In this document: one piece after another, positions 18,693 to 42,535 of the stretch | How the letters are laid out: each line of letters starts with the position of its first letter | Position numbering within the stretch: the stretch's first letter is position 1 | Assembly (NCBI GenBank): GCA_019058365.1 | Contig: JAHPZE010000028.1 | Location: 1 to 56,905, forward strand | From: Promethearchaeota archaeon | GTDB taxonomy: Archaea; Asgardarchaeota; Lokiarchaeia; Sigyniarchaeales; SOKP01 | Length of the DNA stretch: 56,905 nucleotides | Reading direction: 5' to 3' | Translations under genes and position numbers: made by a program | Notes under the pieces: model-generated | Seen by the model: the letters and a program-made list of their open reading frames with translations, nothing else | Told to the model about the DNA's origin: nothing | Databases searched by the model: none

Positions 18693-18925
18693 CTTTTTTT
18701 TTCACTTTTCTACTTTATATCTTTAGATGCTGCTAATAATTATTATTTTTTTCAAGTATATAAAACTATAAACTTGGAATGAAGTATTACATTGAGTGAA
18801 GAAATCTTATGATGAAATTATTTTAACTAATTTTTATCTCAAATATATAAGAAAACTTGAATACCAAAACTTTAATTATTATATGGGTATTAAAAGTAAA
18901 TATAGAAATATCAAGTGAATCAAAT

Positions 18926-23600: not shown

Positions 23601-26600
23601 ACGCTACAGCTAATGTAAGGGTTATTACTTCTTTTGCTTCAGATACATGGTACCATTTAAGAGTTGATGTTTTTTCTGATAATACTTTAGATTTATATCT
23701 TAATGACGTAAAGTTGCTTTCTAAGAATCAAACTTCAAATGACTTAACCACAGGAATAAATGGAACATTTTTTAAAGAATATGATGGGGCATCTAAATGG
23801 TTAATAGATGCTGTGGGGTATTCTGGGGATCCAAATTATAATATTGGAGATAATTTGAATGAGGGTTTACTCTTAAGTTATGTAAATTTTACATCTCTTG
23901 ATTGGCAAGGATATTCTTTAGATGGACAATCCACTAAAACAATTTTAGGAAATACTACAATTCCTATGCTTAGTGATGGAAGTCATTATATTCAAGTTTT
24001 CGGGAATGATACCTTAGGTGAACCATATTGGTCTAACACAAGACATTTTACGATAGATACAGGTTCTTTTTTTAATATAAGGACTCCAGAAAACAGAACT
24101 TATTATGCACCAATGAAGGGATATTACCCTGCAACTTTTAGTTTTGATAATGATAAAGAGGGAAATGATCCCACTGGATTGATTGTAGATGAAACTGGCG
24201 GAACTGCCAATATTTTAAATGAGTTAGACGGTCATAAGGGAGTATTGGAACTACATGATGTGAATGCAGATCTGGTTAACATTACACATGATTTTAACTT
24301 AATAGAATATGGAACTGTAGAGTGTTGGATACGATCTGATGATGTAACACAACGTACGTTTATAGAATTAAGATATGGGTCTTCATTAGGCATTTATTTG
24401 ATCATAAGAGATGATGATTGGATGTATTGGGGATCTTCGGGTATAGTATCGCTACAAAAAGCTAGTGGTGGTAATATGGATACACCGTTAGACAATATCT
24501 GGTATCATATTAGAATTGATTTTGAATGTGGTGATGGTAATTATACAGAATTAAGGGAAGATCATTGGAGAGTATATATTGATGGAATAAAGAGTGCTGA
24601 ACTAGATTTCTTTAATGGTAATCATCTTAATGGAATTAATAGCATAGTTCTTCGAACTCATCTCGGTCTTAGTAATTATTATTCCTACTTTGATGCGCTT
24701 GGATACTCATGGGATCCTTATTATAACATTGGAGATAACATATATGAAGGTTTATATCTTAGTTTTACACAAAACTCTGAATTAAACTGGATTGACTATT
24801 CATTAAATGGACTAAGTAACAGAACGATTTTTGGAAATATAACTATTCCCTTTTCGAATTTAAATGAAGGAATTAATAATATTCAATTATTTGGTGAGGA
24901 TTTTAGAGGAATTTTATATGAATCTGAAATTAGATACTTCTCAGTTGGTTATGGGATAAATATTATAACCCCCGAAGATAAGATTTACACAGAACCTATG
25001 AGTGGATATTATCCTGCGACATATGGCTTTGAAAGCGATCTTCCGGGAGCAGACGCAAAAGATTGGACACACGCAATAGTAGGAAGTACTCACTCATATG
25101 TTGTCGATTCATACAAAGGACATAAGAGAGTATATGAGTTATATGATAATGCCGGAGGAAATCCTGATACTTATACAAATTATAATGATCAACTTTCTGG
25201 AACAGTAGAGGCATGGGTTCTTGTAACTCTTTCGGATTATGTTATTTATATTGATATTAACCAAGGTGGAAGTCCTGTAATAAGGCTAATCCTTAAAGCT
25301 GGAGCATATCTTATAGCCTTGAATAATTCAGTACAAGCTAATATGACAGAATATGGGATTATAAAGGAGGATCAATGGTATCATATTAGGGTCGATTTTC
25401 GTTCAGCTTTGGCAGGAGCTTATATGGGATTAGCAGGTGATTCTTACAGGATTTATTTAAATGATACACAGTCTAATTCAGATTTACTAGTAAATATTCC
25501 ATCAGCTCAAGTAAATAGATTGGGATTTACAACAGGATGGTCATTAGCTGATCCAAATTATTATGCATATTTCGATGCTGTAGGGTATTCTTGGGACCCA
25601 GACTATAACATTGGAGATAATTTAAATGAAGGATTATTACTCAGTTTTGAGAATTCTACAGCTCTTTATTGGCAAGGGTATACTTTAGATTTTCAACCTA
25701 TTAAGACAATTTTAGGAAATACTACTATACCAATGCCTCTGGATGGTGAACATATAATTCATGTATTAGGTAACGATTCATTAGGAGAGTTCTATCAATC
25801 CAAATTGCGTCATTTTGAAGTTTGTAGTATAAATATAATCACTCCTGAAAACAAGACATATATTGAACCGATGAGTGGTTATTATCCTGCTACTTATGGT
25901 TTTGAGAGTGATAAAGATGGGGCGCTTCCAAGAGATTTTATTAATCTAAGTATGTCTGGATGTAATCTAAAAGTTATTTCTGAGTTGGATGGACATAAAA
26001 AAATCTTAGATTTAGATGATCCCGTTGCTGATGGTCACGTGTCTATGAGGAATAACCTAACAATACCCCAAGCATATGGTGCAATGGAATTTTGGGTTAG
26101 AAGTACTAATATTAACAAACCTTTTCAACTTGAATTTCAAGATAGCTCCTTAAATGTTTTAGCAGGTCTTCAACTTATGGATTCGACTTGGAAAGGGTTA
26201 AATCCGTCATGGACAATAATACCGGGATTAGGGACTCCATTGGTCAATAATTGGCATCATATAAGAATAGATTTTGAATGTACAGTTGGAAATTATACAG
26301 GTTTATCTCAATATACATTAAGATATACGGTAGACAATACATTATCAGCAATTTTACCATTTTTAACTAATTGTTCACAACTAGATACAATTCTATATTG
26401 GACAAGCACATCTAATGATAATTATCATATCTATTTAGATGCGTTGAGCTATTCATGGGATCCTTATTATAAAATTGGAGCTAATTTATATGAGGGATTA
26501 TTGCTTAGCTATGAAAATCAAACAGTTTTAGATTGGCAAGGATATTCTCTGGATGGTCAATCTATCAAAAATATTTTAGGAAATACAACACTAATTATGC

Positions 26601-28498
26601 CCGAGAACGGATTACATAATATTCAAGTTTTAGGCAATGATTCATTAGGTTTTATGCGATATTCTCAGTTTAGATATTTTACAGTACAATATTTCCCAAT
26701 CGAGATAATCACTCCTCAAAATAAGACCTATACTGAACCGATGAGTGGTTATTATCCTGCTACTTATGGTTTTGAAAATGATGAGAACAACAATTTTCCA
26801 AAAGGATGGACCAACAACTCTGGGCAATATGGTTATGCTAAAGTTATTGATGGAATTGGTGGACATAATAAGGTTTTGGAATGTTACAGTGGTACAGAAG
26901 ATGGTTCTCGGATTGCTTCGAGTAACTTCTTTGATCCGCAAGAGTATGGCTCATTTGAATTTTGGTGGTATAAATCTTCAAATTATACATCAGCAGCAAT
27001 TATAGATATTTGGGGAGAAACTCCGGATGTTTGCATATCGATTAGAGCAGATCACTGGCCAAGTGCTAATAATGATAAAATTGAATATCAAAGTGCTTCT
27101 GGTTATCAAGATACGGGATATCCTTATTATGCTGATAATAAGTGGATGCATTTTCGTATAGATTTTAATTGCTCATCGGATACCTATAGTCTTTGGATAG
27201 ATCAAGTACAGTATCTTGATAATATTGATTTCGTTAATTCAAAGAACGAAACTGGTGTTAATCAAATACGATTTGATAGTTACAATGCTGGAAACGCAGT
27301 TTTATATTATGTTGATGCTTTAGGATTTTCATGGGACCCAAACTATAACGTTGGAGATAATCTTTATGAAGGTTTATTAATTAGTTTTGAAAGTAGTATT
27401 GATCTCAATTGGCAAGGATATTCTTTAGACTTTCAACCTATTAAAACAATTCTAGGAAATACCACCATTCCAATGCCATCTGAAGGATTACATACTATTC
27501 AAGTGATTGGGAATGATTCATCAAGTACTATGCGATATTCACAACTTCGATATTTTACATATGTATCTGATATCTTTCCTCCTACTATAACAATCAATTC
27601 GCCACTTTTGAATGCACTTTTCGGCAATGCTGCACCGTTTTTTAATTTGACTATCTTAGATCCAGATGTAAATACAATATGGTATACCTTTGATGGGGGT
27701 TTAATAAATCTCACAATTACTTGGAATTTTGGATATCTCGATCAAACTGAATGGGATAAAATTGGAAATGGTACTGCAACCATCAGGTTTTATGCAAATG
27801 ATACAATTGGGAATACAGGGTTCGAAGAGATAACAATTAGAAAGGACATAATATCCCCAGATATTACAATTGTTTCCCCGAGTTTTAATGATCTCTTTGG
27901 AAGTACTGCACCATCATTTAGTTTTAACATTATTGAACCAAATTTAGATAGTAGATGGTATACATTAGACGGTGGAGTAACAATTATTCCAATTTCAGGA
28001 CCTACAGGATCTATAGAACAAGCAGAATGGTATAAGTTTGGCAATGGGACTGTTACTATTAGATTCTATGCAAATGATTCGGTTGGAAATTCTGGATGGG
28101 AAGAGGTAACAGTTAGAAAGGATATACTCCCTCCCTTTATAACGATTACTAACCCGATAGAGGATCGAGTATTTACAGAGAGAGCGCCAAATTTTGATTT
28201 AACTATAAACGAAGGAAATTTGGATCAGATATGGTATACTTTAGATAATGGATTAATAAATAGAACTTGTGCACTTTCTGGACAAATTATTCAAGAGTAT
28301 TGGAATGCATTGCCACCTGGAGAATACACTCTAAGATTTTATGCTACTGATACATTGGGCCATGAAAGCTTTGCGGAAGTAATGATTAGGAAAATAGAAT
28401 CCCCTGCTATATATAGTTATAATATAATTATACTTTCTCTAGTAATGATATTCAGTTTAATATCAATTTCATGGGAAATTAAGAAAAGAATAAAGTAA
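20684..28498 (+). CDS. Giant secreted, C-terminally anchored surface glycoprotein with 7 Ig-like/LamG-like tandem units and 3 Ig-like domains
   Basis: N-terminal KK plus hydrophobic signal; seven M(S/N/K)GYYPAT(Y/F) units; C-terminal TM plus KKRIK; many NxT/S sequons; GGGTGA SD before TTG. Confidence 0.85.
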   Translation: MKKTKKMLIVLMILLVINLVGFIPKNLPDNSETNSNFQDGPTPILNSGDQILLHTYDFEDQTLGQDPTYETFTIDESSGDVYIDDLGDAQHKSMALHKIGTTGRVWVKDNFSLEGETYVSGEYHLKVYHDNSGFGINLNSANGEYILAMVWWNGEIRDNVGGTFLANYALNQWIDVIIYFDLNVGWMFDLNGVRYGAGYSFPFFGAFTANAEHIWMTSFVSGGGDGYFRVDDISAYYNIINILSPLNQTYTNAMSGYYPATYGFENDLDGFLPSEWTDISAGTATSTVEGEIFNHKKVLKAYDPGSGSWTDTNITFSPQISGIIEFWVLKESGGDGSPCDFNLRGDNKSAGYSDAVRLLIDDSNWGNTFYSAGYGYFAVDKYSDDQWFHIRIDFNCRSNKYDLYLDGLKVIDQANFYYTENYIDHIRFASSNGRSGTYYIDALSFSWDPYYNIGDNLHEGLLISVDTEIPLESMSYSLDNQPKRAILGNITIQMPEDGLHSIQIFGVDIFGTHYQSDIRYFTVDFPIDIITPEAKIYTGPMNGYYPATYGFEETITDTLPSYCDFATGGTSPDGPGSYARVIDNWTDGAGNLHKKVFKTYDRTSSSTAHSSLYFTNEGSEICRNCTIEFWACNTNTGNFYHTYFEIIGNLGSMVQFEWDSGGTSNDPEIRITPGTGEFGTGVYHEWNRWYRYSIDISCDGGYLGLGANQFRFRIYDEIGNPIYTSADLDLLTTHPTGGPYRYHVLSTESQSDVSHYLDGFGITSLQDNYEIGVNLNEGLLLSFENNTNFDWTGYTIDGCINKTILGNTTIPLPKDGPHSIKIYSNDSIGTTYQSNICHFSVHHINIRTPEDIIYTTPMSGYYPATYGFEDEITGTLGSNIKFVDWDNHETSTILDELDGHKKVYQIYTAGGWDTIRNYWDTALFNVTYEMWMRVDDANEKHRFSLSELDTGNDDGNAIVHLMVENNSFYLVDDATANVRVITSFASDTWYHLRVDVFSDNTLDLYLNDVKLLSKNQTSNDLTTGINGTFFKEYDGASKWLIDAVGYSGDPNYNIGDNLNEGLLLSYVNFTSLDWQGYSLDGQSTKTILGNTTIPMLSDGSHYIQVFGNDTLGEPYWSNTRHFTIDTGSFFNIRTPENRTYYAPMKGYYPATFSFDNDKEGNDPTGLIVDETGGTANILNELDGHKGVLELHDVNADLVNITHDFNLIEYGTVECWIRSDDVTQRTFIELRYGSSLGIYLIIRDDDWMYWGSSGIVSLQKASGGNMDTPLDNIWYHIRIDFECGDGNYTELREDHWRVYIDGIKSAELDFFNGNHLNGINSIVLRTHLGLSNYYSYFDALGYSWDPYYNIGDNIYEGLYLSFTQNSELNWIDYSLNGLSNRTIFGNITIPFSNLNEGINNIQLFGEDFRGILYESEIRYFSVGYGINIITPEDKIYTEPMSGYYPATYGFESDLPGADAKDWTHAIVGSTHSYVVDSYKGHKRVYELYDNAGGNPDTYTNYNDQLSGTVEAWVLVTLSDYVIYIDINQGGSPVIRLILKAGAYLIALNNSVQANMTEYGIIKEDQWYHIRVDFRSALAGAYMGLAGDSYRIYLNDTQSNSDLLVNIPSAQVNRLGFTTGWSLADPNYYAYFDAVGYSWDPDYNIGDNLNEGLLLSFENSTALYWQGYTLDFQPIKTILGNTTIPMPLDGEHIIHVLGNDSLGEFYQSKLRHFEVCSINIITPENKTYIEPMSGYYPATYGFESDKDGALPRDFINLSMSGCNLKVISELDGHKKILDLDDPVADGHVSMRNNLTIPQAYGAMEFWVRSTNINKPFQLEFQDSSLNVLAGLQLMDSTWKGLNPSWTIIPGLGTPLVNNWHHIRIDFECTVGNYTGLSQYTLRYTVDNTLSAILPFLTNCSQLDTILYWTSTSNDNYHIYLDALSYSWDPYYKIGANLYEGLLLSYENQTVLDWQGYSLDGQSIKNILGNTTLIMPENGLHNIQVLGNDSLGFMRYSQFRYFTVQYFPIEIITPQNKTYTEPMSGYYPATYGFENDENNNFPKGWTNNSGQYGYAKVIDGIGGHNKVLECYSGTEDGSRIASSNFFDPQEYGSFEFWWYKSSNYTSAAIIDIWGETPDVCISIRADHWPSANNDKIEYQSASGYQDTGYPYYADNKWMHFRIDFNCSSDTYSLWIDQVQYLDNIDFVNSKNETGVNQIRFDSYNAGNAVLYYVDALGFSWDPNYNVGDNLYEGLLISFESSIDLNWQGYSLDFQPIKTILGNTTIPMPSEGLHTIQVIGNDSSSTMRYSQLRYFTYVSDIFPPTITINSPLLNALFGNAAPFFNLTILDPDVNTIWYTFDGGLINLTITWNFGYLDQTEWDKIGNGTATIRFYANDTIGNTGFEEITIRKDIISPDITIVSPSFNDLFGSTAPSFSFNIIEPNLDSRWYTLDGGVTIIPISGPTGSIEQAEWYKFGNGTVTIRFYANDSVGNSGWEEVTVRKDILPPFITITNPIEDRVFTERAPNFDLTINEGNLDQIWYTLDNGLINRTCALSGQIIQEYWNALPPGEYTLRFYATDTLGHESFAEVMIRKIESPAIYSYNIIILSLVMIFSLISISWEIKKRIK
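21401..27565 (+). repeat. Seven tandem ~860-950 bp intragenic repeat units
   Basis: The MxGYYPAT motif starts at 21443, 22304, 23255, 24113, 24998, 25871 and 26741; a 42-nt exact duplicate lies at 25864-25905 and 26734-26775. Confidence 0.9.
27569..28395 (+). repeat. Three tandem ~92-aa Ig-like repeats
   Basis: DI.PP.ITI..P...F...AP.F...I...WYT.D.G...W...RFYA.D..G repeated three times. Confidence 0.85.
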
Positions 28499-28577: not shown

Positions 28578-31079
28578 ATGACAGAAATTAGAATACAAAA
28601 ATTAACTTTTATAAGATTAATTTATGGAATTATAATTATAATTATTTTAATCTCAGCATTTCTTCCATATTATTCTGAATTTCACCCTCCATATCCACCA
28701 CCTCCCCAAACAGCTATATATGACGGCTATTTTACATATTATATGGGGTATTTGGCGTTAATTTTTGGAGGGTGGGTAGGATTTGCACTTGGTATTATCT
28801 CAATTATTCTAATGAGTCCAGAGAGAAAAAGAAAAGCACTCTTATTCGGTGGGACAGGTTTTCTTTTAATACTAATTAGCTTAATGATCTACCCCTCTAT
28901 AATATCATCAAATCAGGTTTCGCCAAATCCGATATCATTTGCATCTGGTTTCTATTTATGTTTGATATTTGGGATTAGTTCAGTTGGAACGAATATATTT
29001 GCTTTTGTAAGTAAGGAAGGAGAATTAAGATTCCAACGAGTTAAATCTGGAAAAATAAAAGAAGCAAAGGTGAAACCAGTGAAAGAAAAACAAACAAAAG
29101 TTAAACCAACGAAACGTAAAACATTAGAGATTGAACCCATTGAGATCATGCAAGAAGCAGTAATTGGAACTGATTGGGAAAAAAAAGAATTCATTGCAGA
29201 CAAAACAATGGAATATATCAAAACGATGCAATTTAAAACAAAAGAATTGCCTTTTTTCGAAATTATTTCAAAAATGGGCATAAAAAGAGAAGCTCTTGAA
29301 ACAATTGTAGATGATATGATTTCCAACAATGAAATTGAAGCTCGCGTTAGAGATTTTGTAATCATTTTCAAAGAAATTTCAAAAGAGAAGAGGGAAGAGG
29401 GATTAAAAAAAATCAAAAACAGTCTTCAGCAAAAAATGACAGAAATCGATGAGTTAATCAACGGAAATAGATTTGATGAAGCGATAGCAAATCTAAAGCA
29501 TGTAATAGACTCCGCAGAGAGTTTTCAATTAAAAGATTTTGTAAATAAAGCTAATGAAAAGATAAAACAGTGTAATACACTTAAAATAGAAAAAAGAGAG
29601 GAATTAGAAGAAGAGAGAGTTAAGGATGAGCTTCGAACCCAGCTATCAGAAATTGAAGATTTAATTGAAGATAACAGGTTTAAAATAGCACATAGAAATT
29701 TAGATAAAGTTAAAGAAATTGCCCAAGAATACAATTTATCAGAGTTTTTGAATGAAGTTGAAGAACTAAAAAATCAGTGTAATGCACTAGAGTCAGAAAT
29801 TAGAAGAGATGCGGAAGAATCAAAAGCTAAGAGTGAGATTCAACAAAAAATGCAAACAGTTACCAAGCTAATTGATCAGAAAAAGTTTGAGATAGCAATT
29901 AGTAATTTAGAACAAGTCATTGAGGATGCTAAAACATTTGAATTAAAAGAATTTGTGAAAGAGGCAGAAGAAAAGATAAAAATATGCAAAGAGCTTGAAA
30001 TTGAATGGAGGAGAGACCAAAAACAGAGGGCAAAGGATGATCTTAAAACAAAAATGTCTGAAATCAGTATTTTAATCAAAGAGAGTAAAATCAAAAATGC
30101 ACTTAAACAATTAGATTCAGTTAAAGAAATCGCCCAAGAATACGAATTCTCAGCGTTTTTAAAAGAAGCGGATGAAAAAGTAAAGGAATGTCAAGTACTT
30201 GAACAGGAAATTAGAAAAGACAAGGATCAAGTTAAAATTGAAAAGAAATTAAATAAAAAATTGTATAAAATTGAAAATTTAGTTGAATCCAATCAATTTT
30301 ATGATGCAATTTTAAATTTGGTGGACATTAAGGAAGTAGCAAGACAATATGAACTTTCTGATTTATTAGAGAAAATTGAAGAAAAAATAGAATATTGCAA
30401 AAATTTTCAGTTTAATACCAAGAATAAAATTAAGAATACAATTTTGAATTATAGATCAAAATTAGCAAGACTGGATATATCCGATATATCCGAAAAAAGC
30501 GAGATTCAAGATGAAAATCTAATTGAAAAAGTAATTCTTGAAATGATTAATAATCGAGAAATTAATGCCGAATATTTTTCAAGTTCAAAATCAATTGCCT
30601 TTTATCAAAAGGGAAAAGAAGCAGTCCCTGTCGCGAAAGTTGAAGAACTAAATAAACAGAGAGTCTTTCTAAGTTATTCTACTTTGGATGCTGAGCTTTT
30701 TCAAATTTCAGATATTGTTAAAGAATTAGAAGTGTATCCTGAAATTAGGAAAGTATCGTATTGGCAAGCAGATAGTAAACAAAATATTGTAGAATTCATG
30801 GAAGATACCCTTAAAAATACTGATATTTTCGTACTTTTCTGCTCTAAAAACTCGGTAAAATCCAACGCAGTTAAAGACGAGTGGCAAGCCGCCTTCCAAA
30901 TGAGAAAAAAAGGAATGGTAAAGATTATTCCTGTATATGAAGATGAAGACGATATTCCTGTCTTATTATGGCAGATGTTAAACGTTAAATATACAAAAGA
31001 GGATTTTAGCAGCTTTATACAAAAATTATATGAAGAAATCCTAAGAGGTTTGGAAAAGCAAGTTTCTCCTAAAGCATAA
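28578..31079 (+). CDS. Membrane-anchored TIR-domain protein (4 TM, winged-helix/PCI-like, 5 helical repeats, winged-helix/PCI-like, TIR)
   Basis: TIR motifs RVFLSYS, DIFVLFCSKNSVKSNAVKDEWQAA, KIIPVY; N-terminal TM helices; five ~69-aa repeats. Confidence 0.82.
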   Translation: MTEIRIQKLTFIRLIYGIIIIIILISAFLPYYSEFHPPYPPPPQTAIYDGYFTYYMGYLALIFGGWVGFALGIISIILMSPERKRKALLFGGTGFLLILISLMIYPSIISSNQVSPNPISFASGFYLCLIFGISSVGTNIFAFVSKEGELRFQRVKSGKIKEAKVKPVKEKQTKVKPTKRKTLEIEPIEIMQEAVIGTDWEKKEFIADKTMEYIKTMQFKTKELPFFEIISKMGIKREALETIVDDMISNNEIEARVRDFVIIFKEISKEKREEGLKKIKNSLQQKMTEIDELINGNRFDEAIANLKHVIDSAESFQLKDFVNKANEKIKQCNTLKIEKREELEEERVKDELRTQLSEIEDLIEDNRFKIAHRNLDKVKEIAQEYNLSEFLNEVEELKNQCNALESEIRRDAEESKAKSEIQQKMQTVTKLIDQKKFEIAISNLEQVIEDAKTFELKEFVKEAEEKIKICKELEIEWRRDQKQRAKDDLKTKMSEISILIKESKIKNALKQLDSVKEIAQEYEFSAFLKEADEKVKECQVLEQEIRKDKDQVKIEKKLNKKLYKIENLVESNQFYDAILNLVDIKEVARQYELSDLLEKIEEKIEYCKNFQFNTKNKIKNTILNYRSKLARLDISDISEKSEIQDENLIEKVILEMINNREINAEYFSSSKSIAFYQKGKEAVPVAKVEELNKQRVFLSYSTLDAELFQISDIVKELEVYPEIRKVSYWQADSKQNIVEFMEDTLKNTDIFVLFCSKNSVKSNAVKDEWQAAFQMRKKGMVKIIPVYEDEDDIPVLLWQMLNVKYTKEDFSSFIQKLYEEILRGLEKQVSPKA
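29424..30410 (+). repeat. Five ~69-aa helical repeats in the TIR protein
   Basis: Consensus L..K...I..LI....F..A...L..V...A..Y.L..F......K...C; units 1/3 and 2/4 pair more closely. Confidence 0.75.
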
Positions 31080-31129: not shown

Positions 31130-31306
31130 TTATTCATAATATTCCATTGATTGCCCACAGCATTCTGGAATAGGTTGATAAGCACACTCATCGGAGCAAC
31201 AGCATAATAAGTAATCATCCTTAACCATCATTGATTTATTACAACATATTGGGACTTCTTTCCTCGCTCCACATACATTACAAACTAATTCTGGTATTTT
31301 AATCAT
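31130..31306 (-). CDS. Small Cys-rich protein (58 aa) with two desulforedoxin-like motifs; not in the ORF track
   Basis: Manual translation MIKIPELVCNVCGARKEVPICCNKSMMVKDDYLLCCCSDECAYQPIPECCGQSMEYYE*; 10 Cys; GGAG upstream. Confidence 0.75.
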   Translation of the reverse strand: MIKIPELVCNVCGARKEVPICCNKSMMVKDDYLLCCCSDECAYQPIPECCGQSMEYYE

Positions 31307-31611: not shown

Positions 31612-34182
31612 ATGGAATTAGAAAAACGCGAAATTTTTGAGGAACAAATTAACGAATATAAAAAATTACGACCTCTTTATAAAGAATTTCATAAATACAT
31701 GAAAAAAGTCCTTAAAAATGTCGTGAGAGGCTATTCATCTGAATTTATCATACAAGGAAGAGTAAAGAAAATCTCTAGCTTTGCAAATAAATTATTTAAA
31801 TCAGAAACAAATATTACTATTCCTTTTTTAGAAATTAATGATATATGTGGATTTCGGATAATTTTACCCAATATTAATGAACTAAATACAGTTAGTGAAG
31901 CAATTCGAGATAATTTTTTATTTGATACAGTAAACGGTCATGAAATGTCCGAATTAAATGAAATTAGTGCTTCTTTAGGACATTTCCAAACCTATGTTGT
32001 TCAATTGATGCCTGAATTAAAGCTATATGAAAGACTTGAATTAAAAATACCAGACGAAATTTTTAATTTAAAAGCAGAAATTCAAATATGTACATACTTG
32101 AGTTATGGATGGGCTGCAAATCATTATAAAGTCTTTAATCAATATGAATTTAAAGTACCTAAGCCGTATGACCAAGAACTCAATCGAGTAAAATCTTTAT
32201 TGACTATTGAAGATGAATCATTGAATAAAATTATGAAGAAAATGCGAGATTATAAATCTACAATAATTACGTATATGTCAAATGATAAAATCAAATCTGA
32301 AATTGAAAGATTAGAAATGGTATATAAAGCAGACAAAGAAAACTTTAAGAATGGTTATAGAATAGCAAAATTAGCAATGGCAATTAACGATATGGATAAG
32401 AGTATTGAAATATTGAACGAATTAATGAAAACTGAATCCTTTAAACAAGCATCAGAATTAGAAGTAGCAGAGATTTTAACAGATCTTGGGATATCTCATC
32501 ATAAAAAATATAAAAAAAACCCTATGAGTAATGAATTCTTACGAGGGCAGAATTATTTAAAAGAAGCAGCTCAAAGAAATCCTTTTGATTCTAATGGATG
32601 GTCATCATTAGGAGGCACTTATAAAAGTCAAAAAAATTATCCCAAAGCTTTAGAATGTTATAAGCAAGCATTGAAAGTGAAACCCGGAGATCCCTATCCA
32701 TTAGGTAATTATTTAATCTTAATAATTCAACAAACGGGAGATTTAATCCATATTGAAAGAAATTATGATATGATCCAAAAAGCCATAAAAAAACGAATAA
32801 GACAAATAGAAGTAATGGTTGATGCTCCATGGGCTTTTTTTGATGTAGGTTTATTTAATTTATTTCTTGGAAATATTAATGAAGCTTTAGATTATTATTT
32901 AAAAGGAATAAGATATAGTTCCGATATTTGGATGATTGAAACTACTCTAGATACATTAAATAATCTTAAAATAATAGAAGATAAAATAAAAAGTATTAGT
33001 TTGGTGAGACAAGTTCTACGATTGGGGATGATTTTTCATCCAAATGTAATCGAAAAAACAGATAAAATGATTAATGAATCTACGTTGGTATTAGATTCTG
33101 AAATGAAACAAATGGAAACAAAATTTGATGAATCTATTGTAATTATTGCTGGTGGGACAGATAAGCGTATAGAAAGAAATTTGGAAGTATTTAATAATAA
33201 TTTAATTGATGCTTTCAATAATTTTAAAGGTATCATAATTTCAGGTGGTACTACATCAGGAATTAGCAATACTGCAGGAGATATTCAAGAAAAATATCCT
33301 AATAATATAAGAACTATTGGTTACTTACCAAGTCATATGCCAGCTCATGTTGAACTAGATAAAAGGTATTCTTCAATTCATTTTACAGAAGGAAAAGATT
33401 TCAGTATTAGAGAACCTATTCAATATTGGTATGATATTATGAAATCTGGTATAGTCCCAAATAAGGTAAAACTTATTGGAATTAATGGTGGAAACATAGC
33501 TTCATTTGAGTTTCATTTAGCTATCGTTTTTGGGGCACAAGTAGGTATAATGAGAAATAGTGGAAGAGCTGCAACTGAATTGATTAATGATCCAAGTTGG
33601 GAAGATCCCTCTGGACCGGAATATGGCTATAGACCTAAAAAATTGTTTAAAGTGCTTAAGAATTCTCCTGAAGATATCTATAATTTTTTAACAAAACCAT
33701 TCATTGTGGATCCAGATATTGAAAATATCCAGAAATTATTGGTTCAGCATCGAGAAAGTGGTGCTAATCAATATGAGTTAAATTTTACCACTGAAGATGT
33801 TGATAACACCATTTTTTCTGGTTTTCTCACTGCATTGGATCATATTGCAAGTCATGCATTAAAAGTAGGAGAAATATTATCAATAAAATTTAGCCTTGGG
33901 CATCTATCGGGTGGATTTTTTACAAATAGAGAATTTAAAGTGGTGTTTTTACTGAATGAGATTCCATCACCGACTTTAGAAGATAAAATTATTAAATTCA
34001 TTAAGGATGTTGAAGATAAATTTAGTGATACGTTCCATAAACTTCATTTGAGCTGTCAAAGCTATTTGGGTGGAAAAGAGATGAATGATATCTTATCAAA
34101 TGTTTTCGGTTCTGAGATATTAAAACTTATCGGAGACACAACTGGAACTAAACCCTTAGAAATGCCAGAAGAATGTGACTAA
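31612..34182 (+). CDS. RelA/SpoT-like nucleotidyltransferase, TPR, SLOG and longin-like multidomain protein
   Basis: GRVKKISS, DICGFRII, AEIQICT (RelA_SpoT-like); WSSLGGTY..ALECYKQAL (TPR); IIAGG, SGGTTSG, GGNIASFE, SGRAA (SLOG); FSGFLTAL (longin-like). Confidence 0.75.
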   Translation: MELEKREIFEEQINEYKKLRPLYKEFHKYMKKVLKNVVRGYSSEFIIQGRVKKISSFANKLFKSETNITIPFLEINDICGFRIILPNINELNTVSEAIRDNFLFDTVNGHEMSELNEISASLGHFQTYVVQLMPELKLYERLELKIPDEIFNLKAEIQICTYLSYGWAANHYKVFNQYEFKVPKPYDQELNRVKSLLTIEDESLNKIMKKMRDYKSTIITYMSNDKIKSEIERLEMVYKADKENFKNGYRIAKLAMAINDMDKSIEILNELMKTESFKQASELEVAEILTDLGISHHKKYKKNPMSNEFLRGQNYLKEAAQRNPFDSNGWSSLGGTYKSQKNYPKALECYKQALKVKPGDPYPLGNYLILIIQQTGDLIHIERNYDMIQKAIKKRIRQIEVMVDAPWAFFDVGLFNLFLGNINEALDYYLKGIRYSSDIWMIETTLDTLNNLKIIEDKIKSISLVRQVLRLGMIFHPNVIEKTDKMINESTLVLDSEMKQMETKFDESIVIIAGGTDKRIERNLEVFNNNLIDAFNNFKGIIISGGTTSGISNTAGDIQEKYPNNIRTIGYLPSHMPAHVELDKRYSSIHFTEGKDFSIREPIQYWYDIMKSGIVPNKVKLIGINGGNIASFEFHLAIVFGAQVGIMRNSGRAATELINDPSWEDPSGPEYGYRPKKLFKVLKNSPEDIYNFLTKPFIVDPDIENIQKLLVQHRESGANQYELNFTTEDVDNTIFSGFLTALDHIASHALKVGEILSIKFSLGHLSGGFFTNREFKVVFLLNEIPSPTLEDKIIKFIKDVEDKFSDTFHKLHLSCQSYLGGKEMNDILSNVFGSEILKLIGDTTGTKPLEMPEECD

Positions 34183-34357: not shown

Positions 34358-35626
34358 ATGGTGGAGAAAAAATTGGTTAATACACTAAATCTTAATAATT
34401 CATTCAAATTATATGATGAAGCATTAAATTTAATTCCCGGTGCAATTTTAGGGATACGACGTCCATATAACTTTATTGAAGGGGAGTACCCTATATTCTT
34501 TGAATCTGCAAAAGGTGGAAAAGTAATTGATGTGGATGGGAACGAGTATATTGATATGTTATGCGCTTATGGCCCAATAATCATAGGTCACAGGGAAGAA
34601 GAAATCGATAATGCTGTTATTGAACAAATACGCAATAAAGGATTCTGTATGTCTTTAACTCAACAAGTTCAAAATAAATTGGCAAAAAAATTACGAGAAT
34701 TGATACCATGTTGCGAGAAATTAGTATTAATGAAGATGGGAACTGATGCAACAACAGCAGCAATAAGGGTAGCAAGAGCCTATACGAAAAAAGTTAAGAT
34801 CCTTAGCTGCGGTTATCATGGTTGGTATGATGCCTTCAGTGAAGTCCATGGAATTGAAGCAGGCATACCTAAGAAATTATATGAAGACTTTTTTGAATTT
34901 AAGTTTAATAATCTAGAAGAAGTTGAAAATATATTTAAAAAACATACGAATGAAATTGCGGCTATTATTATAAATCCAATCCATACACCAGGTGGTCGAG
35001 AAGTTGAGATGCCTAAACCAGGATTCTTGAAAGGTATACGTGAATTAGCAACTGAAAATAATGCTTTATTAATATATGATGAGATTAGAACTGGTTTTCG
35101 AGTAGACATGGGAGGAGCACAAAAAATGTTTGGAGTTATTCCTGATCTTGCTGCATTTGGTAAAGCCATGGGAAATGGATACCCTATAAGCACTCTTGTA
35201 GGAAAAGCAGAATTCATGGATGTATTAGTAGAGAAAGTATTTTTAAGTTCAACCTTTTTCCCTAATAGTCTCGCTCAAATAGCATCTCTTAAGACAATTG
35301 AAATACTTGAACGTGAAAAAATATTAAGCAATATTCGTCAAAAGGGAATTCAATTTGCAAGTCAAGTTAAAGAGAGTATTGAAGACAGTGGTGTTCCTTG
35401 CATCTATTCGGGAGAGCCTTGGATGCCATATATTACTTTTATTCCGGATAAAGATTTACTCTATAGAAAACTAAGAGAAGAATTCTATAGACAACTCATT
35501 AGACGGAAAGTATTCCTTCAACCTTTCCATCATGGTTATATATGCTCACGACATTCAGAAGAAGATATGAATTATGCAGCAAATATGATTGATGATTCTT
35601 TGAAGGAAATTAAGAAATTGTTATGA
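34358..35626 (+). CDS. kat: Class III PLP aminotransferase, HemL-like; probable 3-aminobutyryl-CoA aminotransferase
   Basis: DVDGNEYID, YGPIIIGH, DEIRTGFR, FGKAMGNG; directly upstream of kce in a lysine cluster lacking kal. Confidence 0.72.
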   Translation: MVEKKLVNTLNLNNSFKLYDEALNLIPGAILGIRRPYNFIEGEYPIFFESAKGGKVIDVDGNEYIDMLCAYGPIIIGHREEEIDNAVIEQIRNKGFCMSLTQQVQNKLAKKLRELIPCCEKLVLMKMGTDATTAAIRVARAYTKKVKILSCGYHGWYDAFSEVHGIEAGIPKKLYEDFFEFKFNNLEEVENIFKKHTNEIAAIIINPIHTPGGREVEMPKPGFLKGIRELATENNALLIYDEIRTGFRVDMGGAQKMFGVIPDLAAFGKAMGNGYPISTLVGKAEFMDVLVEKVFLSSTFFPNSLAQIASLKTIEILEREKILSNIRQKGIQFASQVKESIEDSGVPCIYSGEPWMPYITFIPDKDLLYRKLREEFYRQLIRRKVFLQPFHHGYICSRHSEEDMNYAANMIDDSLKEIKKLL

Positions 35627-35652
35627 ATAATTAAAATTAGAGTGAAAAATTT

Positions 35653-36480
35653 ATGGAAAAATTGATTATAACTGCCGCTATAAGTGGAGCAGAGGTCACA
35701 AAGGAAAATAACCCCAATATTCCATATACTGCAGAAGAAATAGGAAAGGAAGCTGAATTTGCTTATAAGGTTGGAGCTAGTATCATCCATTTACATGTTA
35801 GGGAAGATGATGGAACTCCTACTCAAAAAAAGGAAAGATTTAGAGAATGTATTGAAGAAATTAGAAGAAGAGTTCCTGATGTAATCATTTTACCTTCCAC
35901 TGGTGGTGCTGTAGGGATGACAAACGAGGAAAGACTTCAACCTATTTATTTAGAGCCTTCTCCTGAAATGGCTACATTAGATTGCGGAACAATGAATTGG
36001 ATTGGCGGAGATGAAATCTTTCTCAACACTGAGAATACAATAATCTATTTTGTCCAAGAGATGAATAATCGGGGAATTAAATATGAATTAGAATGTTTTG
36101 ATAAAGGAATGATTGATACCGTTTTAAGATTGCATAATAAAGGATATATTAAAGGTCCTATGCACTTTAATTTCATGTTAGGTGTAAAAGGAGGAATTAA
36201 TGCTTCAGTAAGAGATTTTTTATTCTTAGTTAATAGTATTCCTAAAAATTCTACATTTAGTATTGGAGCTATTGGTAGGTATGAATTTCCGATGATTACG
36301 TTATCTATAATAATGGGAGGGCATGTTCGAGTTGGTTTTGAAGATAATCTTTATTTATCTAAAGGGATATTAGCAAATTCTAATGGGGAACTGGTAGAAA
36401 AAGTTGTTAGAATAGCACATGAACTAGGGAGAGAAATTGCAAAACCCGATGAAGCACGCAAAATCCTAAGTTTAATATAA
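35653..36480 (+). CDS. kce: 3-keto-5-aminohexanoate cleavage enzyme
   Basis: KLIITAAISGAE, HLHVRE, STGG, RVGFEDN; lysine cluster context. Confidence 0.92.
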   Translation: MEKLIITAAISGAEVTKENNPNIPYTAEEIGKEAEFAYKVGASIIHLHVREDDGTPTQKKERFRECIEEIRRRVPDVIILPSTGGAVGMTNEERLQPIYLEPSPEMATLDCGTMNWIGGDEIFLNTENTIIYFVQEMNNRGIKYELECFDKGMIDTVLRLHNKGYIKGPMHFNFMLGVKGGINASVRDFLFLVNSIPKNSTFSIGAIGRYEFPMITLSIIMGGHVRVGFEDNLYLSKGILANSNGELVEKVVRIAHELGREIAKPDEARKILSLI

Positions 36481-36512
36481 TATAATTTATTTGAGTTTTG
36501 TAGGATGAAAAT

Positions 36513-37220
36513 ATGTATAAGGAATTAGCAAAATACTATGATTTAATCTATTCGTGGAAAGATTATAAGGGAGAAGTCAGTAAAATTAAGGAATTGATTA
36601 AGAAATATAAAAAATCTGATGGTAATAAATTATTAGATGTTGGTTGTGGAACAGGAAAACATTTGGAATATCTTAAAGATGAATATTCTTGTATTGGTAC
36701 GGATATTAATGCAAAAATGTTGGATATTGCAAAAGAAAAGGTTAGCGATGTAATTTTCGCCCTATCAGACATGATAACTTTAAAGCTCAAAGATAAATTC
36801 GACATAATTTTATGTTTGTTTAGTTCAATTGGGTATGTAAAAACATATCCAAATTTAAAAAAGACAATAATTAACTTTGCCAATCATTTAGAAAAAGGAG
36901 GAATAATAATTATCGAACCATGGTTTACAAAAGATGCCTATTGGGTAGGACACCCCGGTATGACCACTTACGATGGTGAAGATATTAAGATTGCGAGATT
37001 AAATACAGCAAAATTAAAAGATGGTCTTTCAGTTATGGAAATGCATCATTTAATTGTTGAAAGAAATGAAGATGTTAAGTATTTTGTTGATCATCACGAA
37101 TTAGGACTCTTTGAAATTGAAAAGTTTTTAGAGATTATGATTGAAGCTGGATTAAAAGCAGAATTTTTGAAAGATGGCTTAATGAAAGATAGAGGTCTCT
37201 ATATAGGAACAAAATCATAA
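36513..37220 (+). CDS. Class I SAM-dependent methyltransferase (TylM1/DesVI-like)
   Basis: YDLIYSWKDY, LDVGCGTGKH, CLFSSIGY, IIEPWF, RGLYIG. Confidence 0.88.
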   Translation: MYKELAKYYDLIYSWKDYKGEVSKIKELIKKYKKSDGNKLLDVGCGTGKHLEYLKDEYSCIGTDINAKMLDIAKEKVSDVIFALSDMITLKLKDKFDIILCLFSSIGYVKTYPNLKKTIINFANHLEKGGIIIIEPWFTKDAYWVGHPGMTTYDGEDIKIARLNTAKLKDGLSVMEMHHLIVERNEDVKYFVDHHELGLFEIEKFLEIMIEAGLKAEFLKDGLMKDRGLYIGTKS

Positions 37221-37242
37221 AAATTTTTACACATTTATAAAT

Positions 37243-38295
37243 TTGAGTGATAATATGAAGAAAGGATCCAAATATGGGACACATAGAGTTCTTGAACCTA
37301 AGGGTTCTTTACCCCAATCCGCAATTAAAATTTCTAATGATATGGAAATATTTGATAATGAAATTTTAATAGATGTTGATTATTTGAACATTGATTCAGC
37401 TAGTTTTAAACAATTAGCAGAAGAAGCAAAAGGAAATATTGATAAAATCAAAAATAAAATCATAGAAATTGTTAGAGAAAAAGGTAAAATGCAAAATCCA
37501 GTGACTGGGTCTGGTGGAATGCTCATGGGGCGTGTAGTAAATATCGGTGATTCTTTAAAAGATAAAATTGATTTGAAAATTGGAGACAAAATTGCTACCT
37601 TGGTATCACTTTCATTAACACCGCTTAGAATAGATAAAATTTTAAATATTCACCCTGAAATTGATAGAATAGAAATCAATGGAAAAGCTATTCTTTTTGA
37701 GAGTGGAATATATGCGAAAATTCCTAAAGATATTGAATATACATTGGCACTAGCTGCTCTTGATGTTGCAGGAGCTCCAGCACAAGTAAAAAAACTTGTT
37801 AAAGAAGGTAATGTAGTATTAATTCTGGGGGCTACAGGAAAATCAGGTTTATTGTGTTCCTACATGGCAAAAAAAATGGTTGGTAAAAAAGGAATAGTCA
37901 TTGGACAAGCAAGAAATGAATCGCGCGCAGCATTTCTTAGAAACACAAATTTTTGTCATAAGATTATTATAGGTGATGTTCTAAATCCTATAAATATATT
38001 AGAAGAGACCTTAACTGTGAATGATGGAAAAGAAGTAGACATTTCAATCAATTGTTTAAGCATACCTAATACAGAAATGGCTAGTATTTTACCAGTAAGA
38101 GACGGGGGAATAGTTTATTTCTTTTCTATGGCAACAAGCTTTACTAAGGCAGCTTTAGGTGCTGAAGGAGTAGGAAAAGATGTTACAATGATTATCGGTA
38201 ATGGATATACAAAAAATCATGCGCAAATTACGTTGGATTTAATACAAGAATCAGAAATGCTAAGAAAAATCTTTAAAGAAAAATATATATCATAA
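37243..38295 (+). CDS. kdd: L-erythro-3,5-diaminohexanoate dehydrogenase
   Basis: YGTHRVLEPKG, NIDSASF, NPVTGSGGM, LVSLSLTPL, SMATSFTKAALGAEG. Confidence 0.93.
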   Translation: MSDNMKKGSKYGTHRVLEPKGSLPQSAIKISNDMEIFDNEILIDVDYLNIDSASFKQLAEEAKGNIDKIKNKIIEIVREKGKMQNPVTGSGGMLMGRVVNIGDSLKDKIDLKIGDKIATLVSLSLTPLRIDKILNIHPEIDRIEINGKAILFESGIYAKIPKDIEYTLALAALDVAGAPAQVKKLVKEGNVVLILGATGKSGLLCSYMAKKMVGKKGIVIGQARNESRAAFLRNTNFCHKIIIGDVLNPINILEETLTVNDGKEVDISINCLSIPNTEMASILPVRDGGIVYFFSMATSFTKAALGAEGVGKDVTMIIGNGYTKNHAQITLDLIQESEMLRKIFKEKYIS

Positions 38296-38563
38296 CTTCT
38301 TGTTGTTAGAAAATCTATATTCGAAGCTAATATTTTCCCCTAATTTTGCTATGTTTTATGGTTTTCTCGTAAAAAAAAATTTATTTGAAATTCTTTTCTT
38401 TACCTTATTTTCAAAACAACTTTAAATTTTAGTTAAATTTTAATGAAAAATTATTGAAATGGATTTTATTAAAAAATGAAAAATTAGATAAATTATTTGA
38501 GGATAAACGTTTTTAATTAAATGTCAGTTAAGTTAAATATCACAGATATTAGTGAATTAAATT

Positions 38564-39802
38564 ATGAAAGTTAATAGACGTAAAGAGTTATTTAGTAATG
38601 TTAACGATAAGGATTGGAATGATTGGCATTGGCAGGTTAGAAATAGGATAACAACTTTGGAAGAACTCAAAAAATATATTACCTTAACCAAGGAAGAAGA
38701 TGATTCTCGAATTTTAGAGGAATATAGAATGGCAATTACCCCCTATTATTTATCCTTAATTGATCCTGATGATCCATATGATCCTATTAGAAAACAAGCA
38801 ATTCCAACTACTCATGAATTAAATAGATGTCAAAGTGACTTGGAAGATCCACTAAGTGAAGATATTGATTCTCCAGTTCCTGGTTTAACTCATCGATACC
38901 CTGACAGAGTCTTATTTTTGGTAACAGAGAAATGTTCAATGTATTGTAGACATTGTACACGGAGAAGATTTGCGGGACATCTTGATATGGGACCGCAACC
39001 ATCACAGATAGATGCTTGTATTGAATATATAAAAAATACTCCTTCAATTAGAGATGTGCTCTTATCTGGAGGAGATGCGTTATTAATGTCTGATGAAAAA
39101 TTAGAAGAAATTCTCAAGAAATTGAAACCAATAACTCATGTAGAAATTATACGTATAGGTTCTAGAGCTCCAGTAACTAATCCTTTCCGTATTACTCCGG
39201 AATTATGTGAAATGCTGCAAAAATATCATCCAATTTGGTTTAATACACATTTTAACCACCCAAATGAAATAACAGAAGATTCTAAAAGAGCCTGCGAGAT
39301 GTTAGCTAATGCAGGGATGCCTCTTGGAAATCAATCCGTTTTATTAAAGGGTGTAAATGATTGTATTCATATAATGAAAAAATTAGTGCATGAATTAGTT
39401 AAAATTCGAGTGAGACCATATTATATTTACCAATGCGACCTTTCTTTAGGTCTTGGACATTTTAGAACAAGTGTAGCTCAAGGTATTGAAATAATTGAAG
39501 GATTAAGAGGTCATACTTCAGGATTATGTGTACCTACTTTTGTTGTTGATGCTCCAGGAGGCGGTGGAAAAATACCAGTTATGCCAGGGTATACAATATC
39601 TCAAGGAAATACTCGAGTTGTATTAAGGAATTTTGAAGGAGTCATAACGACTTATGAAGAACCAAATGATTATGTACCAGACTGTCATTGTGAAGATTGT
39701 GAAAAACAAATCGGAGTTAGTGCATTACTGAGTGGTGAAAAAGTTACTATTGAACCCGCAGATCTGAAAAGGAAACTAAGAAGAAAAAAACTTACTAAAT
39801 AA
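38564..39802 (+). CDS. kamA: Lysine 2,3-aminomutase (radical SAM, PLP)
   Basis: [29 protein letters not shown]-terminal CHCEDC. Confidence 0.96.
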
Positions 39803-39871
39803 TTCTAAAGTTTAAATAAGTTAGTTTTATTTCTGTAATTATCAAAAACACTAATTGTTTTTGTCAAGAAA

Positions 39872-40903
39872 ATGGATTTTATGACTAACTTTCTTAATAA
39901 CATCACTACATTTTCAGTTGTTTCAATAATTGGTCTCGCAAAAAATGTTAGTAAAACTACAACATTAAATTATATTATAAAAAACTTGAAAGGTTATAAG
40001 CTAGGTCTAACTTCTATTGGAAGAGATGGGGAAAAATATGATGTGATTACACTTTTACCAAAACCTCGAATATATATTAAAAGAAATACAATAATTGCGA
40101 CAGCAAGACAAAGTTATGAAGCAAGTGAAGTACAAATGGAGATATTAAAAACTACTGACTTTAATACTCCATTAGGGGAAGTATTAATATTAAAAGCATT
40201 AAGCGATGGGTTGGTTGAATTAGCTGGACCATCAACCAATAAAAATTTGAAAAAACTATGCGTAGAATTAAAAGATTTAGGATGTGATCTGATTCTCATT
40301 GATGGGGCATTTGATAGGAGATCTTATGCAACACCCATCATATCTGACGCTATAATCCTTTCTACGGGAGCTTCTGTATCAGAAGATATCCAAAATGTTA
40401 TTGATTTAACAGCTCATACAATTGATTTATTAAATTTAGAATGCGAGAAAGAAAAGGAAATTTCAGATATAGCTAAGGATATATTTAAAAAAGCAAAAGT
40501 AGGTATAGTGGATAATCAAACTAATATAAAATTATTAGATGTACCCACTCCTTTAGATGCTGCAAAAGATATTTCTGCAAATTTAGATGAAAAATCTAGA
40601 TATGTTATAATAAATGGCGCAATTACTGATAAATTATTAGAAGATTTAATGAAATTTACACATAAATATAAGGGAGTAACGTTCCTAGTAGAAGATGCAA
40701 CTAAACTTTTCTTAAGTAAAAATTTAAAGAATAAGTTCCAAAAAAAAGGTGGAATAATAAAAGTCTTACATTCCATTAAGGTTATAGCAGTTACTATAAA
40801 CCCAACTTCTCCATTGGGATATCAATTTGAAAAAGATAACTTTTTAAATTTAATGAAAAAAAAACTCGATGTTCCTGTTTATGATTTGGGAGCAGGTAAT
40901 TAG
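39872..40903 (+). CDS. kamB: KamB-like protein (putative lysine 5,6-aminomutase reactivase subunit)
   Basis: SIIGLAKNVSKTT, TSIGRDGE, ELAGP, IDGAFDR; sits between kamA and kamD. Confidence 0.75.
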   Translation: MDFMTNFLNNITTFSVVSIIGLAKNVSKTTTLNYIIKNLKGYKLGLTSIGRDGEKYDVITLLPKPRIYIKRNTIIATARQSYEASEVQMEILKTTDFNTPLGEVLILKALSDGLVELAGPSTNKNLKKLCVELKDLGCDLILIDGAFDRRSYATPIISDAIILSTGASVSEDIQNVIDLTAHTIDLLNLECEKEKEISDIAKDIFKKAKVGIVDNQTNIKLLDVPTPLDAAKDISANLDEKSRYVIINGAITDKLLEDLMKFTHKYKGVTFLVEDATKLFLSKNLKNKFQKKGGIIKVLHSIKVIAVTINPTSPLGYQFEKDNFLNLMKKKLDVPVYDLGAGN

Positions 40904-40935
40904 AATAATACAAATTAATATTAAAAGTTAAAATT

Positions 40936-42534: not shown

Positions 42535-42535
42535 A

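Follow-up and report, generated by a model that had tools for sequence, protein, structure and literature searches.

The window analysed here, the whole 56,905-nucleotide stretch of contig JAHPZE010000028.1 from a Promethearchaeota archaeon, carries a gene for an 856-residue protein in which a RelA/SpoT homologue (RSH) domain resembling small alarmone synthetases (SAS), a TPR solenoid, a SLOG domain of the LSDAT type and a longin domain follow one another. We propose, with a probability of about 0.55, that this protein, hereafter the reader, senses a TIR-made signal, combining a pseudo-synthetase with a longin docking output in a Thoeris-like TIR-to-SLOG cassette. Since the synthetase site of the reader is worn and a membrane TIR gene lies alongside, its most likely function is to receive an immune-type signal derived from NAD, not to make ppGpp or to act in membrane traffic. 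The gene and its domains are arranged as follows.

31612 to 34182, plus strand: whole gene, 856 residues, RSH (SAS-like)-TPR-SLOG (LSDAT)-longin, predicted signal reader
31612 to 32256, plus strand: RelA/SpoT synthetase-like domain, residues 1-215 (profile, fold, motifs)
32275 to 33045, plus strand: TPR solenoid, about residues 222-478, with an invariant PYPL motif (profile and model)
33127 to 33702, plus strand: SLOG domain of the LSDAT/TRPM type, about residues 506-697 (profile, fold, motifs)
33718 to 34131, plus strand: longin-fold domain, about residues 703-840, a common Loki C-terminal module (folding of the domain alone)

Domain organization of the reader

The open reading frame (ORF) has no break in frame, and the gene is single-copy, without a paralogue elsewhere in its own genome. 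Its named homologues are Lokiarchaeota/Promethearchaeia proteins that align over nearly the full length with 37-97% identity, and each domain shows a dN/dS of 0.04-0.24. The AlphaFold2 model (pLDDT 82) contains a helical solenoid at about residues 222-478, and the protein scores 44.3 bits against Pfam TPR_1; when the full-length model was searched with Foldseek, only TPR proteins were returned. A preliminary description, made from the sequence alone, had proposed that RelA_SpoT, TPR, LSDAT/TRPM-type SLOG and longin modules coexist in this protein. All four are borne out by profile, by fold or by both, and Pfam, the AlphaFold2 model and the fold matches agree with the anatomy and coordinates then given: the middle domain is a SLOG and the C-terminus has a longin/roadblock fold. 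A sigma-70 promoter scan, ill-suited to an archaeon, gave hits at chance level.

A profile search against representatives at 50% identity placed the reader in a large family with a common RSH-TPR-SLOG core. The preliminary description had suggested a survey of alternative C-terminal domains, and among the 180 sequences with both RSH and SLOG the tail is RyR in 99, longin in 40 and of no recognised type in 41. The reader is homologous to the RSH-TPR-SLOG-RyR proteins over its first 670 residues or so, and its longin stands at the RyR position. It appears to be an offshoot, within Promethearchaeia (Loki), of this widespread parent family of bacteria and other archaea.

The acceptor side of the synthetase-like domain is eroded

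The N-terminal domain matches RelA_SpoT (PF04607) at residues 49-169 with 39.3 bits (cut-off 27), the only such match in its own genome, and no hydrolase domain accompanies it. Its fold is closest to SAS1 (5dec, Z 13.3, 164 aligned residues, rmsd 3.0) and RelP (6ewz, Z 13.1). To set the residue register, SAS1 was taken as reference via the intact relative P0043. On the ATP/Mg side, R50, K52, S56, K60, D77, R82, E156 and Q158 are retained (motifs RxK..S...K, DxxxxR and ExQ). The acceptor side is altered: the G-loop Tyr is replaced by G123, the G-loop His by T127, the IRT Arg by C160, the following His by Y172 and the YK motif by N176-Q177. Profile-profile alignment backs this register, placing G123 at the Tyr and T127 at the His position. 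The deviations already listed in the preliminary description, namely ICT for IRT and no clear Y.S.H beside otherwise synthetase-like motifs (here R50-x-K52, S56, K60, D77, R82 and E156-I-Q158), were read correctly; GYxSxH is absent.

These changes separate whole groups of proteins. GYxSxH occurs in 96/99 RyR-class proteins versus 0/36 of the main longin clade; the G-loop His is present in 99/99 versus 8/36, and the Tyr of the YK motif in 98/99 versus 0/36. Every synthetase motif is present in the basal longin proteins P0040 and P0051, while several other branch members (P0031, P0032, P0041 and P0054) have lost the ATP side as well, and the tree suggests that the site eroded more than once. The order of conservation is also reversed: it runs RSH 50%, SLOG 43% and TPR 30% in the RyR class, versus SLOG 58%, TPR 54% and RSH 40% in the eroded branch.

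Substrate binding depends critically on the G-loop Tyr, and toxSAS enzymes lose their toxicity when this residue is replaced by Ala (PMC7229694). Since the GYxSxH motif is lost, canonical ppGpp synthesis is unlikely. By descent the reader fits the SAS class of RSH, but judged on its motifs it fails as an active synthetase. The preliminary description had offered a nucleotide sensor or an alarmone-like (pseudo)enzyme. This agrees with the near-invariant glycine motifs of the SLOG and the eroded acceptor side of the synthetase; production of an alarmone is unlikely for the reader. Since dN/dS is low and an H-x-Q-T loop replacement is conserved in the crown clade, the RSH domain is kept for something, be it ATP binding, scaffolding or a new reaction.

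The last of these options defines a competing view that shares the TIR-to-SLOG wiring and that we hold to be possible, though clearly less probable: the N-terminal domain would be active and, once the SLOG is loaded, would transfer pyrophosphate from ATP to a new acceptor that is neither GDP nor GTP, such as another nucleotide, an RNA end or a protein hydroxyl. In the main clade, R50, K52, D77, R82, E156 and Q158 are each retained by 32-35 of 35-36 sequences, the H-x-Q-T and NQ[YH] replacements are conserved in the crown clade under the same purifying selection, and known RSH enzymes can switch to (p)ppApp or tRNA acceptors (PMC10118264). However, the acceptor-switched toxSAS enzymes keep and need the G-loop Tyr (PMC7229694), the four proteins named above have lost the ATP side too, and within the branch no domain is less conserved than RSH.

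The SLOG domain is of the LSDAT/TRPM type

When the SLOG segment was scanned alone, residues 509-660 (about nt 33136-33591) matched LSDAT_prok with 29.9 bits (cut-off 25.4); 24/24 homologous segments also matched this family. The best fold matches include TM1055 (1rcu, Z 17.8), the TRPM2 chanzyme (8sr7, Z 15.6) and 7aov (Z 14.4), along with LOG, YgdH and YvdD proteins (Z 13-14.5) and DprA-type folds. Together, profile and fold uphold the earlier assignment of an LSDAT/TRPM-type SLOG to the middle of the protein. The reader carries GGT (514-516), SGGTxxG (544-550), GY (570-571), NGG (625-627), E633 and SGR (650-652), and the glycine motifs are near-invariant among homologues. The first two align with nvTRPM2, weakly (E 0.14), and R652 may correspond to R358 of human TRPM2, judging from the GSGR motif rather than from a tool alignment. 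LSDAT was reportedly defined by Burroughs et al. in 2015.

LOG-type enzymes bear the motif PGGxGTxxE. The SLOG could be an enzyme in its own right, a LOG-type phosphoribohydrolase regulated by the other domains and serving to break down the TIR signal or to deplete nucleotides; we regard this as unlikely. It would agree with the fold matches to LOG, YgdH and YvdD and with E633, which follows the GG loop as in the LOG motif and is kept in 35/36 main longin-clade and 94/99 RyR-class proteins. It would also suit the RSH-less TPR-SLOG-longin and SLOG-longin genes (loci L019 and L017) and the type III Thoeris SLOG effector, whose mode is uncharacterised. Yet the profile matched is LSDAT and not LOG, the LOG motif is partial, and the SLOG of TRPM proteins is a binding module: the MHR1/2 cleft of TRPM2 binds ADP-ribose (ADPR) (PMC6759353).

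A membrane TIR gene accompanies the reader

Two features lie directly upstream of the reader.

28578 to 31079, plus strand: membrane TIR protein, 833 residues, with N-terminal transmembrane helices, ArnB_C/PCI-like helical repeats and a C-terminal TIR_2 domain (nt 30648-31052), predicted signal generator
31130 to 31306, minus strand: Cys-rich ORF of 58 residues (CxxC, CC, CCC, CC), between the TIR gene and the reader

The catalytic Glu of the TIR protein (E768) is invariant in its clade. Among 22 scoreable Asgard-clade loci, a TIR_2 gene lies at most two genes away in 17 and an adjacent DUF4062 TIR-like gene in two; three have neither. Since the own genome has just 6-7 TIR genes in 4.74 Mb, such proximity would arise by chance in about 1% of cases by our own estimate. 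The TIR partners are not one orthologue: they belong to at least two TIR clades, include multi-transmembrane, beta-helix, beta-propeller and TPR-TIR proteins, and lie upstream, divergent or convergent. Several span the membrane once and combine a signal-like helix, a large ectodomain, one transmembrane helix and the TIR domain.

The TIR clade of the window has up to 11 matches per genome in relatives. Nine genomes have an RSH gene with a longin tail (split in one genome, cut by a contig end in another), and the clade was found in all of them (E<1e-60). Across the genus, seven genomes have both TIR and SLOG, two the TIR only, two the SLOG only and ten neither, a tally of kindred genomes that admits no valid p-value. 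The reader's own genome also encodes three large single-pass ectodomain-TM-TIR proteins of the same clade and of Toll-like layout (C7:139840-143646, C33:54937-61554 and C54:45697-50241).

The linkage extends to the parent family. At 61 non-Asgard parent loci, a TIR or DUF4062 gene is found at 27, a NUDIX hydrolase at 32 (mostly next door) and another RyR protein at 18, the extra RyR proteins being TrkA_N-RyR and AAA-RyR; five control genomes gave a background of 0-5 TIR_2 matches per genome. Eroded loci have no NUDIX neighbour. The preliminary description, accurate on the protein itself, lacked this strongest part of the context, namely the neighbouring TIR-receptor gene and the parental RSH-TPR-SLOG-RyR/NUDIX family.

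Some individual loci differ in their further content. At L113:2340-10538 the reader is divergent from a TIR gene, which is followed by ThiF (E1-like), JAB and UFC1-like (E2) genes, an arrangement that resembles Thoeris operons with CBASS-type ancillary genes. In three bacterial parent loci (L072, L083 and L085), a Tubulin_2 gene and a conserved 800-residue partner stand directly upstream of the RSH-TPR-SLOG-RyR gene. The NUDIX following P0043 was considered as part of a frameshifted SLOG-NUDIX fusion and rejected, being a separate gene.

Proposed signalling route and relation to known systems

In type I Thoeris, the SLOG binds the TIR signal (10.64898/2025.12.03.692087). By analogy, the reader would be the cytoplasmic receiving half of such a cassette in one Lokiarchaeial family. 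The membrane TIR protein, and probably also the paralogous single-pass TIR receptors, would cleave NAD+ on a trigger to ADP-ribose or a cyclic isomer. The LSDAT/TRPM-type SLOG, as its fold and motifs suggest, would bind this product and the TPR solenoid would relay the change. In the parent family, the output would be the motif-intact synthetase, with the NUDIX or HD hydrolase as the probable reset, judging from motifs and linkage. In the longin branch, the remodelled acceptor pocket implies that the domain is probably an ATP-binding pseudo-synthetase or a scaffold, and the longin, at the RyR position, could act as a docking module for downstream partners. If this proposal is right, TIR nucleotide signalling gains an effector class not described before (RSH-TPR-LSDAT). 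The change from a seemingly active enzyme into a pseudo-enzyme could then be followed, together with a RyR-to-longin tail swap inside Asgard archaea, and two proteins become available for joint testing, one a membrane TIR and the other a soluble TRPM-type SLOG.

The cassette resembles Thoeris types I (ThsB TIR and ThsA SIR2-SLOG) and III (several TIRs and the SLOG effector ThsD) in placing catalytic-Glu TIR genes beside a SLOG protein, in having several TIRs per single reader and in being gained and lost as a block. A TIR gene with a catalytic Glu is indeed linked to a putative signal-sensing effector gene, at 17/22 loci and with an invariant Glu. Unlike in Thoeris, the TIRs here sit in the membrane and vary in their ectodomains, the SLOG belongs to the LSDAT type, and RSH, TPR and longin are fused to it instead of SIR2. 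The parts of the text and supplements of a 29-type survey that were available to us describe SIR2-SLOG, SLOG alone, SLOG-patatin and SLOG-4TM, and hold no RelA/SpoT or LSDAT terms. Thus, the reader cassette appears to work like Thoeris I and III but cannot be filed as a described type.

Resemblances to other systems are more partial. With the small alarmone synthetases (RelQ/SAS1, RelP/SAS2, the toxSAS FaRel and CapRel), the reader shares the synthetase-only RSH fold with ATP/Mg motifs, and with CapRel the control of an RSH by a fused sensor, there in defence; it differs from all of them in the lost acceptor G-loop and H/YK residues and in 640 extra residues of TPR, SLOG and longin. TRPM2 MHR1/2 is of the same SLOG subtype by profile and fold, and the pairing of the parent family with NUDIX recalls the NUDT9-H domain of TRPM2 itself, whereas the reader has no channel and its ligand is only predicted. 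The RSH-TPR-SLOG-RyR family differs in having RyR for longin, an intact synthetase and NUDIX neighbours. We found no description of RSH-TPR-SLOG-longin proteins or of their RyR parent in the literature, where an earlier mention in the LSDAT-defining paper or its supplement is possible.

Several observations weigh against a TIR-to-SLOG cassette with a pseudo-synthetase. The purifying selection on the RSH domain and the H-x-Q-T replacement fit an altered activity as well as a dead one, and FaRel Y175A retains some activity (PMC7229694). A gap of 533 bp, which contains the small opposite-strand ORF, lies between the TIR gene and the reader, so that their co-transcription is no more than a possibility. 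PADLOC 2.0, whose library is older than types III-XI, gave no Ths match for either the reader or the TIR of the window; one TIR from a parent locus matches ThsB at 1e-6. The TIR clade is present in 35/68 family genomes versus 15/68 for the reader and, being far commoner, does not need it. Finally, since a single inherited slot accounts for many of the loci in the genus, the locus counts overstate independence.

The longin tail

Searches of the C-terminal sequence against Pfam, NCBIfam and the PDB gave nothing useful, and only folding resolved the fold. Folded alone (pLDDT 83), residues 703-840 form a five-stranded sheet in the order b-b-a-b-b-b-a-a. The best 50 structural matches are all longin or roadblock proteins with TRAPP subunits first (7b6d_C, Z 11.1, 126 aligned residues, rmsd 3.2; 3cue_C, Z 10.7), then CPLANE (Z 10.3), the VAMP7 longin (10.1) and MK-D1 roadblock3 (10.1). 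Topology and fold therefore confirm the C-terminal longin-like domain that had been proposed from the sequence. TRAPP Bet5/Trs23, CPLANE, Mon1-Ccz1, AP sigma/mu, VAMP7 and the MK-D1 roadblocks share fold and topology with the tail, but identity is 6-18%, there is no Pfam match, and the tail belongs to a Loki-expanded family. Indeed, about 33 ORFs of the own genome carry the module according to an iterated profile search (stand-alone, in multi-pass membrane proteins and in large single-pass proteins), and its neighbours in the atlas are similar Promethearchaeota tails. Since Z-scores of 8-11 are common to many longin and roadblock proteins, the match shows fold, not function. In parent operons, RyR is common to neighbouring proteins too, which suggests a docking or second sensing role for RyR and, in its place, the same role for the longin.

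The preliminary description had favoured a nucleotide-gated regulator of Asgard small GTPases or of membrane traffic acting via the longin, a reading that now looks improbable. In its favour, the best longin matches (TRAPP, CPLANE, Mon1-Ccz1 and AP subunits) include many components of guanine-nucleotide exchange factors, and the genome holds about 47 small-GTPase-like ORFs. However, a motif scan found no small-GTPase ORF on the contig, no GTPase family recurs beside homologues of the reader, the fold scores are spread over many longin and roadblock proteins, and the same module sits on about 33 unrelated ORFs. The distribution is, moreover, patchy and cassette-like, in essentially one family. 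With nothing beyond the fold, a common tail in the RyR position and a gene in 17/301 genomes, coupling to small GTPases is possible but unsupported. A combined version, which we also hold to be doubtful, would be an immune circuit of one Lokiarchaeial family in which single-pass TIRs of Toll-like layout with interchangeable ectodomains make an ADPR-type messenger and the TRPM-type SLOG protein reads it; having given up alarmone synthesis, that protein would instead pass its output via the longin into the Asgard longin/small-GTPase network. If true, TIR signalling would here meet a eukaryote-type trafficking module in a prokaryote.

Family tree and distribution

RyR-type and tail-less proteins come from Chloroflexota, Planctomycetota, Bacteroidota, Acidobacteriota, delta-proteobacteria, Bathyarchaeia, Thermoplasmatota and Methanobacterium. 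Longin-tailed proteins are archaeal only, their named hosts being Promethearchaeia. In core trees, the longin proteins cluster with one truncated member in a single branch (SH-aLRT 97); this branch groups with tail-less proteins, several from Asgard genomes, and away from the RyR class. Since the root is a midpoint root and composition is uneven, the order RyR, tail-less, longin is our interpretation of the tree. In a sample of 301 genomes of the phylum, the SLOG of the reader was found in 17: its own, 15/68 others in the family and one outside it. The reader is therefore a lineage feature and not pan-Asgard, and its patchy distribution, essentially within one family, speaks against an ancestral eukaryotic-signature system.

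RSHs are rare among archaea (PMC3153485). A working (p)ppGpp synthetase serving a stringent-type response is highly improbable: although the reader is the sole RelA_SpoT match of its genome, has a SAS fold and has motif-complete basal relatives (P0040, P0051) and one with a fused HD_4 hydrolase (L066), its G-loop Tyr and His are missing, as are the IRT Arg and the H and YK residues. Moreover, searches did not find the gene in roughly half of the genus to which it belongs, and tests of archaea for (p)ppGpp did not detect any (PMC8646023).

If true alarmone synthesis is to be sought in Asgard archaea, the intact relatives P0040, P0051 and L066 are themselves good candidates. L066:3-3320 encodes an archaeal protein of 1106 residues, RSH (intact motifs)-TPR-SLOG-longin-HD_4, with a synthetase and a Mesh1-like hydrolase in one chain, the order being the reverse of that in long Rel proteins. 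It is a good candidate for true alarmone turnover in the clade.

Other loci vary in domain content. L099:3932-12097 (G171:C38) holds a DUF4062-TPR giant gene, a tail-less RSH-TPR-SLOG gene (669 residues) and an RSH-less TPR-SLOG-longin gene (700 residues) in tandem, with more TIR genes near; it may mirror the step of longin-tail gain. L017 and L018 (genomes G180 and G129) have genes for SLOG-longin only, of 347 and 293 residues (the latter cut short), without RSH, TPR or a TIR neighbour. The L031 contig, labelled Odinarchaeota at NCBI, shows the same position and match as genome G219 of the window's genus and is probably mislabelled.

The cassette occupies a variable slot

The TIR gene and the reader lie in a slot with the following further contents and flanks.

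18857 to 20506, plus strand: left flank, outside the module, a core gene conserved in the family
20684 to 28498, plus strand: surface protein inside the slot, 2604 residues, secreted, C-terminally anchored, with CBM/Ig-like repeats
34358 to 43324, plus strand: right flank, outside the module, a cluster for lysine fermentation (class III aminotransferase, BKACE, kamA, kamD/E and others)

Here, the slot between the core gene and the lysine-fermentation cluster spans 13,852 bp and holds the surface protein, the TIR gene and the reader. Seven congeners have an empty slot, with the same flanks only 434-453 bp apart, and in genome G195 only the last 100 codons of the longin remain as a 3' remnant. 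By its GC content, the cassette does not stand out as a recent foreign arrival. Block-wise loss is typical of conflict modules. Since the cassette is gained and lost as a block, its likely role is defence or surveillance; such loss does not prove defence.

The 549-residue product of the left flanking gene is coiled-coil-rich and unannotated. This gene recurs beside the reader and was considered as a component of the cassette, but was rejected as a family core gene, single-copy in 57/68 family genomes; with that query, none was found outside the family. The lysine-fermentation genes were rejected likewise, as they abut the core gene in genomes without the cassette, and their cluster, including a dehydrogenase-like gene, is syntenic across the genus.

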